A DNA stretch of 58,196 bases, the filler included, from Platydemus manokwari (lineage: Eukaryota), in the NCBI GenBank assembly GCA_037951405.1. It is 5 parts of 5 records of this genome, joined end to end, with 100 filler letters (N's around TTAATTAATTAA, not from the genome) between each part and the next. Parts side by side here need not be neighbours in the genome. Positions count along the whole stretch, not along the records: positions 11,029 to 23,375 come from JBBMOY010176674.1; 4 more parts are not named here. One strand, written 5' to 3'. The translations under genes were made by a program, and so were the position numbers. A model generated the notes under the pieces. It was not told the origin of the DNA, made no database searches, and saw only the letters and a list, made by a program, of their open reading frames with translations. Below are positions 16,790-21,212 of the stretch, one piece after another (the first letter of the stretch is position 1; the number at the start of each line of letters is the position of its first letter).

Positions 16790-19250
16790 TCGAGATCCAT
16801 TGCGACAATTTCAATGGGAGTAGTAGGAATAGCCATAAGTCTTAAAGGGGCTCGGCATTTGTTGCCTGTATTCCTGCGAGTCTGGCATATCTTGCATGAT
16901 ACGCACCACTCTCTGACATCATTCTTCATATTTCTTCATATATATATTTTTATTGAAGGCGGGACACGGTCTTTTTGGCTGAAAGATGTCTGCCTAGTGT
17001 TCCTTCGTGGTACTATAGGATAAGCGTTTCTTGGAGTACCTTAGACACGATGATAAAGTTCCTGTCGCCTTCTTCTATTTTCAACAGCTTTTTATCAAAC
17101 ACCATTTTCTCTTGGTGCTTTTTTATAAACTTTGTGCATGATTGCTCTGCGGACAAATGAATAATCCCATTAGTTTCCAACTCCGGGGGAATGTTATCCT
17201 ATTGTAATAAATAGCCCTGAATTTCTTCGTCTTCCTTTTGTAACTTGCTCACTTGAGTCAGTGTGTGGACCACTGCAAAAACGTTTTCTGTATCTATTTT
17301 CTATGTGTCCGGTTCGGCACGTGAGAGAGCATCGGCGTTTCCATTCGCTTTTCCCTTCCCGTAACATATCTTGGCATTGTATTGTTGTAGTTTGAAAGCC
17401 CAGCGGATGAGCCTAGACACGGTGTTGCGATGCAGTAGCAACCACTGAAAAGGTTGGTGGTCAGTGAGTTCATGTATCTAGTTACCATAAATGAAAGTTC
17501 GAAACCTTTCTACAGCATATACGATGCCCAATACCTCTAATTCGATGACTGCTTAGTTTCGTTCATGACTTTTTAATCCGTGACTGACATATGCGATGGC
17601 ATATTCATTTCCATCATTGTCATTCTGTCCCAGAGCTGCACCAATGGAGTAACCTCTTGCATCCGTCATAATGATGAAGGGTTTGCTAAAGTCTGGGTGA
17701 ATAAGAATTGGTTCGGCGATCAATGATTACTTTAGAGAGTGGAAAGCCTTATCCGGTGCTTCCCCCATTGAAATAATTTATTCTTTTGCAGTAGCTCAGT
17801 CAATAGCTGTGCGATGGCAGCGCAATTTCGGATAAAATTTCGATAATAACTCACTAATCCTTGCACATGTTTGACTGTCCGAGGTTGAGGGTATTGTTCT
17901 ACCTTGGTGATATAAACGTGGTCAGGCTTCACTTCTTGTTCAGACAATACATATGGCCTAAATATTTGATTTCTTTTCGTGCCCATTCGCATTTGGTAGG
18001 TTTCAACTTTACTTGTGAGACGATTACTTTTTTCAATACCTCTTCTATATCTCGTTCGTGCTCCTCATAACCATTTGAGTCATCTATATATACCATTGCG
18101 TGATGGATGTCCATTAACATTAGATTAATGGCCCTTTGAAATGTGGCCGGAGCACCAGTTAATCCGAATGGCATAACTGTGTATTCATATAGACCCTTGC
18201 CATCGGTAAAGGCTGTGATAAGTATTGAATCTCCACGAACTGTTTTGACCATTGGATCTATTAGAGGTAAGGGATAATTATCCTTCCGTGTTTGTTCATT
18301 AACTTTTCGATAATTGATGCACATGCGCATCGTTCCCTCTTTTTTCTTCACCATAACAATCGGCGACCTCCAGGGAGAGTTGCTTTTACTCGAGTAATTC
18401 GTCAACTTGCTTTTGCACTTCTGCTTCCATTGCAATCGGTGTGCGGTATGCTCGTTGGCATATCGGATAAGGGTTGAGTAATTCAATCCTATGTTCCATG
18501 AGATTATATTTTCCTAGGTCATGCTCGTGCTTCGCGAAAGCTTTTTATTAATAATTGAGAAGCTTCGTGAGCTGCGTATATTGTCGTGGAGTGATATCCG
18601 AGCTATGGATTTCGAGTACTTTTTGACTGGGTTCTCTTGTGTTTCTATGATAAATTCAGTTACTGCTCCTAGCTTAGTGTGGGGATACAGTTTTATCGGC
18701 TTTGATGATGTATTTGCTATTTGTATTGGAATTTTTCCCTTTTGTACTGAGTGACATGGATGTCTTTTCCATGAAACCGACACTGGGTCCGAATAATACT
18801 TCCTCAGTATTATCACGGCTGGTTTGACGAAAACAAACGGTTTTGGTTCGAGGTGGGATTGTGATTTCTTCCCCAATATAAACTTCATTCCCACGTTCGT
18901 GTTTATCCATAATGAGTTTGACCAAGGTTCCGGTTGTACACTCATAAACAATGCCTTTTAATTGTCTGAGGACATCTTTTCCTATTACGCAGTCGTATGG
19001 GCAGAAAATAGATACTGTGACAGAGACTTTGACTTTGAGGGTTTGATCTCATATTTTCACCTTGCACCTTATTGCCCCGAGTAATGGTAAAGAGCTTCTA
19101 TTGATTCCTGTAATAGTGATATCCATTTTCTCGATGGCTTATAATTCATTCATATTAAGCACCTTTGGGTGGGTAATGGTTAAGTCAGCTCCGGTATGGA
19201 TTAATGCCATGACGGTGTGTCGATTAAGTTTCATCGGAACTAATTTGTGA
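16790..19250 (-). pseudogene. pol: Gypsy pol remnants (protease, dUTPase-like spacer, RT, RNase H, integrase N-terminus)
   Basis: Protease ALIHTGADLTI (DTGA decayed). RT SPWRSPIVMVKKKEGTMRMCINYRKVN, MPFGLTGAPATFQR and VYIDD. RNase H HPDFSKPFIIMTDARGYSIGAAL. Integrase VREWCVSCKICQ...PIEIVAMD, after which the core is deleted. Confidence 0.93.
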
Positions 19251-19669
19251 GAATTTCTGACATATCTCATCATGTAATGATATTTTGTGTATCCCAATAG
19301 GTTTTGTCGATGTAAGGCGGCCTCATCAGTATTTGATGGGTATTCCTCTTGGTGTCGTTGCAGTGCCTCGATTGGGTAAAAAGGAGTTTCAGGCTCCTTT
19401 GGGGGTACAGACTCTTTGCCCCTAGAGCTTGTCCTTTGAATACTTACCTTAGGTTTCTTCATTGGTTTCCTCATGACCTTTATGTCCGAGTTGAATCCTG
19501 AGTCATCGTCTGAATTATTTGGAGGGGTTGGCGGTCTCCTTGTTGTATAATAAAGTTTATTTCCCCATTGTGGAGGAGGCTGTCTGACAAGTTGATGCCT
19601 GTCCTCAAGTAATTGCATTACCAGTTTCGCCTCGGTTCCATATTTTTGTGCATTTCCTGGTTGACTATC

Positions 19670-20800
19670 ATTGGACAAATTCCAAATAGTAGTTTTGTGG
19701 AACATCCGAAAACTTCTTACAAATGATAAGTAGTCATTATTTGATGTAATACTGTTTTAATTATCACAAATATGACGTAAATGCCTCTACATCCCTCAAC
19801 AAAAGTTCCGAATGCAGCGAATCGTCCCCATATCTGTTGTGCCACATTTTCTGCTGCTTTCTTAAAGTGATCCATTGTAAAGAGGTTATCGTAATTCGGA
19901 ACTGTACCTCTATTTTGGTAGATATATCAAATAATTTCGGAAATTCCTCTGTCTCTCAATATAGGGAAAACTAATGCTCGCCTTGCTTCTTCAATATCTT
20001 GTGCCATGTATATCCCACTTTGCTCCATGTCATCAATAGGATGGAATTCTACTTTTCTCCGATTATTTGTAAATTGAGTATCTCCACAGGATCCGTTGGT
20101 GGTCTCCTATCTGGTATTGTTATCCATTGATTATCCATTTTGTATAATGAGGATATCAAAGGGTTACATTCCACCGGTTGGGCAATGACTCTTCTTTGAG
20201 CAACACATGGGATATTGGATGTATTTATCATTTGTGCTCTTTGTATGAGACAGTTAATTCTCGTGTACATTCAGTAGTTTTGACAATAGTAACCTGCACT
20301 ACTGCACATTCATATGTGTACCATGCTACCCGGCTAATGCGATCGTATCTGTCCATTTTTCACGATGATGGGTGTAATTGAGATACAATCCTTTGTAGTT
20401 GGTCTCGTACATAAGGACCACACATTTGTCTAGAGATGTCCCTTTTATAAGTCGTATGGCATCCCCTTGTGAGCAGCTATGAGTACAGTGGAAGTAATTT
20501 TTTTTCCGTATGATTTCCTCTTCTGTGTTTTCCGTCTAACCGATTTCTGGTAGTTGGCTTACTTTCCCAGGTAGTCCTGTTTATTGAGTTGAAATTGATG
20601 CGTTTCAATAATGTAACTCCGCAGTAACTTTGTTTTGCCTTGTATACTAAGTCTGCGCCGTCGACTTGGCAGCTGTTGTGCATCGAACTACACTTGGGAT
20701 ATTGAGTCATATCCCCACTATTGATATCAAATTTGCCCTCGTATTGGGTTAATTCAACTGTATAATCTTCAATGTCTACAATGTATCCGTTGGGCAATTA
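19670..20800 (-). pseudogene. env: Chuvirus-like / gB-type (class III) envelope glycoprotein remnant
   Basis: Pieced across frameshifts: YTVELTQYEGKFD..KCSSMHNSCQ; KC..LMYETNYKGLYL; VQVTIVKTTECTRELTVSYK..IHPISHVLL; PVECNPLISSLYKMDNQW; SGIYMAQDIEEARRALVFP; IWGRFAAFGTFVEGCRGIYVIFVIIK; TYHL*EVFGCSTKLLFGICP. Motif order and spacing match my recollection of chuviral-type glycoproteins. Confidence 0.78.
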
Positions 20801-20811
20801 GTTCTATCTCA

Positions 20812-21212
20812 ATAGGCTCGCTAAGTGAGCAATATTAACTGATAGGTAAACTCTCCGACATGTTCACCTTGCATTTGCCTCCTATTTTTGAATCGCTGCC
20901 TGAACAGATGTCCGGTATCTGCTGGCAATATGGTCCTCCCAAACGCATTTTTGAATTCCGCCCAAGTTTTCGGAGGTGCTCCTACACTCATTACGCAAGT
21001 AAAACGTTCTCGGGCCATGCCTGTTAAAAAAATCGGTAGTCGTTTTATCATTTTTTCTTAGTTCATACCGTGAGCGTCTGAAAGTTGAAAATAATCGACC
21101 ATAAACTCATGATAGAGGCCGGGTTCATCTTTACTGGTATTAAGACAAATGAGCTATCCTTGTTAGGTACTATGTGCACTGTATGCGCGACTTTGTCAGT
21201 TTCAGTAGACAT
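20812..21212 (-). pseudogene. gag: Gypsy gag N-terminal/capsid remnant
   Basis: ATG at 21212, downstream of the PBS. RLPIFLTGMARERF...TWAEFKNAF...RRQMQGEHVGEFTYQLILL is a retrotransposon Gag capsid motif (Q-x2-GE-x-V-x-EF). Confidence 0.85.

Follow-up and report, generated by a model that had tools for sequence, protein, structure and literature searches.

A decayed Ty3/gypsy element of Platydemus manokwari with a chuvirus/gB-type envelope gene between gag and pol

What kind of retroelement carries an envelope (env) gene ahead of its protease, and does that order belong to a lineage or to one damaged copy? The question is raised by a long terminal repeat (LTR) element in a 58,196-nucleotide (nt) stretch of Platydemus manokwari DNA (assembly GCA_037951405.1), the whole of which we call the window. 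The element lies on the minus strand at 22385-16328, within a single gap-free assembly piece, and has a GC content of 40%. We conclude, with a probability of roughly 0.85, that it is a dead copy, with deletions, of a repeated Ty3/gypsy element that has a gB/chuvirus-type env between gag and pol, and that its working ancestor likely made Gag, Env and Pol as a single polyprotein, which would be threaded through the endoplasmic reticulum membrane and cut by signal peptidase and by its own protease. Read along the minus strand, the element consists of the following features.

21310-22385, minus strand: 5' LTR, 1,076 nt with TG...CA ends, identified from sequence and contig depth
21291-21307, minus strand: primer-binding site of the tRNA-Trp type, 2 nt from the LTR end, matching 11 of 12 nt of the tRNA-Trp 3' end
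20812-21212, minus strand: gag remnant (PF03732, E = 1.7e-5), first ATG at 21212, capsid-like part at 21108-20812; broken, with the C-terminus missing
19621-20797, minus strand: env remnant, a chuvirus/gB-type class III fusion glycoprotein in five blocks and three frames
19759-19815, minus strand: predicted transmembrane anchor of Env, 19-residue hydropathy 1.69, position matching that in relatives
19719-19663, minus strand: second, weaker hydrophobic segment, 19-residue hydropathy 1.38
19237-19639, minus strand: Pro/Lys/Arg-rich linker of 134 residues (11% Pro, 8% Lys, 8% Arg)
18953-19243, minus strand: aspartic protease (PF00077, E = 6e-5), catalytic motif mutated, with in-frame stops
17760-18513, minus strand: reverse transcriptase (RT) of the Ty3/gypsy type, broken (PF00078, E = 7e-20; 4e-18 in a second Pfam scan)
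17379-17693, minus strand: RNase H (PF17917, E = 1.9e-29)
16792-17045, minus strand: integrase, reduced to the zinc finger (PF17921, E = 1e-3 in one frame and 6e-3 in another, both below the cut-off) and the beginning of the core
16348-16668, minus strand: exonuclease-like accessory open reading frame (ORF), truncated, 106 codons, 3' of pol
16328-16387, minus strand: 3' LTR remnant, only the last 61 nt, 87% identical to the 5' LTR end

The pol domains follow the Ty3/gypsy (Metaviridae) order of protease, RT, RNase H and integrase. Within a small PDB sample, the solved structures closest to the RT were 4ol8 (E = 3e-27) and the Ty3 Gag-Pol structure 7q5b (E = 7e-26), followed by 8r0s (7e-15), with retroviral RTs at 6e-8 or weaker; the best matches thus place the enzyme with Ty3/gypsy rather than with copia, BEL/Pao or retroviruses. 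The gag remnant was similar to the N-terminus of a protein relative, P0017 (E = 2.6e-6), and to the gag ORF of a metagenome locus, L002 (E = 9e-8). A full 5' LTR with TG...CA ends, the 61-nt 3' remnant and the primer site complete the Ty3/gypsy features. A first-pass annotation of the sequence had proposed this minus-strand gene order and a tRNA-Trp primer site; Pfam domains, translation and primer site agree with the order, and the site itself was recovered at 21307-21291 by comparison with the last 12 nt of the tRNA-Trp entry in supplement 1 of PMC13524379. The window holds no tRNA gene with which to check the primer site. The overlap of the two LTRs, just 61 nt, is too short for dating the insertion, and no target-site duplication was found, the element flanks being different. 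A diverged solo LTR lies on the plus strand, in opposite orientation, at about 41180-42140 of the window, with ~70% identity to the element LTR over 206 and 131 nt and 92% over 40 nt.

The env remnant matched PF24664 (Monjiviricetes_fusion) at E = 5.3e-20 over profile positions 460-603 of 653. A profile built from 71 natural relatives resolved it into five colinear minus-strand blocks (profile positions 163-241, 246-293, 376-418, 419-456 and 458-604 of 659; E = 3e-4 to 6e-43) and gave no plus-strand match below E = 0.75; tblastn with polyprotein relatives returned the same colinear, broken picture. All five env motifs listed at first pass are present and in order, with the correction that they are spread over three reading frames. 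The class III, chuvirus- or gB-like identity proposed with them, the fold expected of GAG-ENV-POL elements with a gB-type env, is upheld by the PF24664 match in the window and by the fold of a relative, P0011, whose env model (predicted local distance difference test, pLDDT, 80.5) matched herpes simplex virus 1 (HSV-1) gB at E = 8.7e-14 and the Tacheng tick virus 4 glycoprotein at E = 6.1e-40. The P0011 env part had no sequence-level PDB match, gB being reached by fold search alone. Other details of the first-pass description needed revision: the Cys content of env is modest (11 of 372 residues) rather than rich, and of its two terminal hydrophobic segments, both visible, only the first is strong (1.69 versus 1.38). 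A word-index search with the env tail gave no match, and nothing was found with the env tail in a metagenome locus scan or with the env alignment or RT in viral-contig scans.

Decay is more extensive than the one frameshift and deleted env N-terminus first reported. The five env blocks carry four frame changes and four stops in their best frames, and two parts are deleted, namely the N-terminus (profile 1-162) and an internal part of about 80 residues (profile 294-375), lost between 20377 and 20347; the region that bears variable cysteine bridges is largely gone. The protease catalytic motif is mutated, gag and pol hold additional stops and frame changes, and the similarity of the integrase to its relatives stops at 16792, most of the core being lost. 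The window copy is unable to encode working products.

Other copies of the family came from contigs of one sequencing run (X1), the only run listed as containing the window DNA; no RNA data set was among the listed holders, which carries no information on expression. In this run 1,490 contigs lay on the element, 642 of them less than 90% alike. Summed contig depth was 540-1,360 over env as well as over pol, compared with 10-22 when only contigs identical to the window copy are counted; on the LTR (21248-22382) it rose to 3,900-10,400, dropping to 21 in the next bin. This pattern fits a repeated family with many solo LTRs. One contig of 3,131 nt matched both gag and env, which are 1,500 nt apart on it compared with 646 in the window copy, a difference of 854 nt that is in keeping with the 244 env positions and the short gag end lacking in the latter. 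Two further contigs joined the env end to the linker, one at the same length as the window copy and one with a single gap. Env between gag and pol is a trait of the family, not a one-off.

Relatives in protein collections extend this order beyond the family. A full HMMER search with the env frame returned 187 proteins at E <= 0.001, with top ranks rich in polyproteins of 1,250-2,850 residues. We scanned 15, picked for length or top rank from the best 150 of the 187: PF24664 was present in 15/15, a protease followed env on the same chain in 11/15 (four of those also with RT and RNase H), and marks of gag stood ahead of env in P0018, P0009 and P0017. P0151 has env before pol in a single ORF. A separate metagenome scan yielded three loci (L001, L002 and L003), among which L001 has one frame of 3,426 residues from before env through integrase and L003 one of 2,693 residues with a zinc knuckle, env and full pol. 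Alignment of the relatives with the window is colinear through env, protease, RT and integrase. The env tree placed the window env, at SH-aLRT 94, in a group of 23 rows that includes every one of the 14 rows for which fusion to gag or pol is known; in the remaining 108 rows the chain stops no more than 221 residues from the match. The X1 gag-env contig, the protein relatives, the L001 and L003 loci and the env tree all bear out the earlier suggestion that env upstream of protease is a lineage trait. The single polyprotein suggested along with it was found in relatives, where env through protease is one chain, whereas the X1 contigs of the window's own family are mixed.

The relatives also indicate how such a chain may be arranged. 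A hydrophobic stretch (15-residue mean 1.1-3.1) stands just ahead of the env start motif in 14/14 relatives checked; in the polyproteins it lies inside the chain, with 148 to 1,364 residues before it. The ectodomain is closed by a strong anchor. The protease motif lies 147-224 residues past the anchor region in 10/14 of them and about 208 residues past it in the window copy. Between env and RT, two to four protease-like domains were seen in P0151, P0009, P0010, P0018 and L001:2-10282, and P0151 additionally matches ankyrin and a C2H2 finger. A further gag-env-pol polyprotein, P0003, is filed in NCBI as HBK71150.1, a protein of a Flavobacteriaceae metagenome-assembled genome; it is most likely animal DNA binned with a bacterium, and a P0003 locus scan of prokaryote genomes found nothing.

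Following the logic of this arrangement, Gag would be the first product, in the cytosol. Translocation would then be opened by the internal hydrophobic segment, and cutting of this segment by signal peptidase would free the Env N-terminus; by established rules of membrane-protein topology, Env would be luminal and its anchor would stop transfer. The linker and the protease, RT, RNase H and integrase would stay cytosolic, tied to the Env tail until the element protease released them, and a tether of Pol through the Env tail can reasonably be inferred from this topology. Recrossing by the second hydrophobic segment would send Pol into the lumen, so its likely position is along the face of the membrane. 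It is at this membrane that particles would form and acquire Env trimers; class III fusion would then let them into other cells, and tRNA-Trp would prime reverse transcription. Intact relatives may have spread between cells in this way.

Several points weigh against this account of the element. The protein that was folded is P0011, ~40% identical over the matched part, rather than the window copy. X1 is possibly the window's own source, and summed contig depth is no copy count; no intact family copy was found, and no listed X1 contig covers the whole element. Among the scanned relatives, 4/15 (P0011, P0013, P0015 and P0017) have no pol domain, and the protein library is biased toward long ORFs. 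In L002, gag and env share a frame but one stop lies between them. The env tree was a quick version of the C-terminal part (133 columns, unstarred support; 131/153 rows, 22 being dropped for short overlap). Finally, the X1 contigs across the env-linker junction are mixed and no high-depth length difference is listed there, so the family as a whole may have a frame break between env and pol.

One alternative is that env is kept while the family moves only within cells, Env serving as a membrane anchor for assembly and not for infection. According to passages of PMC13524379, env-mediated transmission is not known for most elements of this kind, and a one-to-one Gag:Env:Pol product would be an odd ratio for an enveloped particle. 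However, the ectodomain is preserved whole in the relatives, where 34 positions (13 of them Cys) are invariant in the 14 sequences compared, and its class III fold is predicted with confidence; this is more than an anchor requires, and we regard this explanation as doubtful.

A second alternative keeps the element and separates the frames of env and pol, with Gag-Env as the main product and Pol made by programmed frameshift or from a separate message, which would set the ratio of Gag to Pol. The linker of the window copy (ORF 19756-19139) does lie in a different frame from the env tail, and a contig ~15% diverged has the same length across 19806-19453. The second contig across the junction, however, has a gap, short end-clipped contigs can conceal length differences, and no canonical slippery heptamer was seen by eye near the junction. 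The window copy has many other frame changes, and env runs into protease in one frame in the 11 scanned relatives noted above as well as in L001, L003 and P0151. Separate frames are therefore improbable in our judgement. Chance insertion of an endogenous viral element, a chuvirus glycoprotein fragment, into an ordinary gypsy copy between its gag and pol genes would suit the truncated and broken env and the over 100 stand-alone-length glycoproteins or fragments that also match it, but has next to no likelihood left: X1 contigs that join gag to env and env to linker refute it in effect, env depth equals pol depth, the relatives are colinear, and env groups with pol-fused envs. Nor does the locus qualify as a stand-alone chuvirus glycoprotein insertion, its env being linked to retroelement genes and grouping apart from stand-alone glycoproteins.

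The layout of this dead, env-bearing Ty3/gypsy copy is not new, contrary to what had been implied at first pass. Passages of Chary and Hayashi (eLife 2026, PMC13524379) already describe a GAG-ENV-POL order with only gB-type env in gypsy elements of Nematoda, Bryozoa and Platyhelminthes, link that env to Chuviridae glycoproteins, report ectodomains that have either a signal on one side and an anchor on the other or a membrane segment on each side, and credit Sacco et al. 2022 for the nematode case. As far as those passages go, their elements and the window element have in common a Ty3/gypsy pol, a gB-type env between gag and pol, LTRs, a tRNA primer site and genomic repetition; compared by description, the window copy is decayed whereas theirs are intact. 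The window element is a real but dead member of the described kind. Its Trp primer sets it apart from the rows for those three phyla in the table of PMC13524379: they account for 0/9 of the Trp-labelled rows, although the summary tab counts 13 Trp elements and many rows are without a primer call. The main text of that paper uses none of the terms exonuclease, polyprotein, in-frame or Bcl; its figure supplements (trees, alignments and ORF maps) may already show a single-ORF organisation.

A single gag-env-pro-pol frame is present in L003 and several relatives, while contigs of the window's family are mixed. One continuous frame of this kind is reportedly also the organisation of the nematode case, the nematode endogenous retroviruses (NERVs), which are said to be limited to chromadorean nematodes and to carry a helicase or a small accessory ORF. 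Like the window element, NERVs are reported to have env ahead of pol in a metavirus and an RNA-virus-type glycoprotein; the accessory ORF of the window element is exonuclease-like, in contrast to the helicase or small ORF reported for NERVs. Mosquito BEL/Pao elements carry a Chuviridae-like glycoprotein according to passages of Dezordi et al. 2020 (PMC7642597) and so share with the window element the capture of the same glycoprotein family by an LTR element. A BEL/Pao-type pol was considered for the window element and rejected, its RT being nearest to Ty3 and no Pao-type Pfam family being present.

The accessory ORF at 16348-16668, absent from the first-pass annotation, is on sequence grounds a probable remnant of a DEDD-family exonuclease. 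It aligned with the PF00929 (RNase_T) ORF of L001 at 18/84 identical residues (32.7 bits; 0/300 shuffles scored as high) and was the best match in the whole window with a sensitive tblastn seed (E = 2.9e-4), though missed by default tblastn. By itself the ORF had no Pfam or PDB match and hit only unnamed Atlas clusters, at low recognition. The acidic residues of the first motif are not conserved in it, and contig depth over it is similar to that over pol. In L001, the corresponding gene (L001:10617-12107; PF00929, E = 1.4e-5) is a separate 496-codon ORF 3' of the env-pol polyprotein. Such a 3' gene is likely an accessory module for RNA trimming or evasion of defence. In P0064, a stretch ahead of env looks exonuclease-like by eye.

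Passages of Rodriguez et al. 2017 (PMC5408684) describe a comparable arrangement in the rotifer LTR elements Vesta and Juno, which have a DEDDy exonuclease as ORF3. As in the window element, that gene lies 3' of pol; in Vesta and Juno it stands in place of env, whereas in the window element and in L001, where the protein is a PF00929 RNase_T, it coexists with an upstream env. The passages of PMC12801592 that were searched make no mention of env.

A second accessory candidate is a Bcl-2-like helical stretch just ahead of the env signal in several relatives (L002:2521-3057, L001:821-1300, P0011 1-110 and P0001 1-130); it was not found in the window. In P0011 the stretch matched Bcl-xL (E = 0.01) and, below the cut-off, PF00452 (E = 1e-3). 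The L002 stretch was modelled with low confidence (pLDDT 51); all Foldseek rows shown for this model were of the Bcl-2 family (best E = 0.03), and with VIA its top 11 rows were again Bcl-2 family members (Z 5.5-6.0, root-mean-square deviation 3.0-4.2, 84-115 aligned residues), under the tool's trust level; searched by sequence, this stretch gave no match better than one to a Bcl-x homologue at E = 0.75. None of the 10 literature matches listed connected Bcl-2 to gypsy elements, subscription journals being outside the coverage. We treat the stretch, on these models, as a lead for a possible retroelement-borne regulator of apoptosis.

A wider reading is that the gag-env-pol elements found here share one env lineage and form a distinct enveloped group, each expressed in flavivirus fashion as a single membrane-threaded polyprotein, with two virus-like accessory genes: a 3' DEDD exonuclease (the window family and L001) and, ahead of env, a Bcl-2-like module (P0001, P0011, L001 and L002). 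The window family would then add to the group a Trp-primed branch in an animal phylum so far unreported for it. We put this forward tentatively and think it unlikely to hold in full. A single decayed copy adds little by itself, its gene order and envelope type being already published, and its value is as a pointer. In its relatives env and pol are commonly in a single frame that contains an internal signal-like segment. The question that follows is how a retroelement assembles from one membrane-spanning chain of capsid, spike and enzymes; we did not find this treated in the literature searched, which again excluded subscription journals. The relatives also hint at accessory exonuclease and Bcl-2-like genes in this group, which would point to a virus-like way of life inside the host cell.

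The DNA around the element is AT-rich (about 27% GC) and of animal origin, and the window holds SK-channel, TRAF-like, TBP and PP2C genes; a word-index search with the TRAF-like gene gave no match. Artificial joins, each an N-run, a 12-nt linker with stops in all frames and another N-run, occur at ~10930, 23377, 34123 and 44710, at a spacing of 10-12 kb, so adjoining pieces are possibly not adjacent in the genome. A second retroelement remnant lies on the plus strand at 55795-56892, with an integrase core (PF00665, E = 7e-9, 56015-56383) flanked by two repeat copies ~970 nt apart. Between 24000 and 26000, GC rises to 36% with a strong strand bias, probably marking a further mobile-element remnant. 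A host ORF at 15324-15686 on the minus strand begins like a signal peptide and continues as a very Arg- and Cys-rich repeat, with Cys pairs three residues apart recurring about every 11; it had no Pfam match, and no tandem repeat was detected. From its composition it looks like a secreted cationic defence peptide and, having no in-frame ATG, it is probably a second exon. The TBP-like gene, on the minus strand at 31955-32497, is unusually divergent, with <=64% identity to any of the best 120 matches listed.

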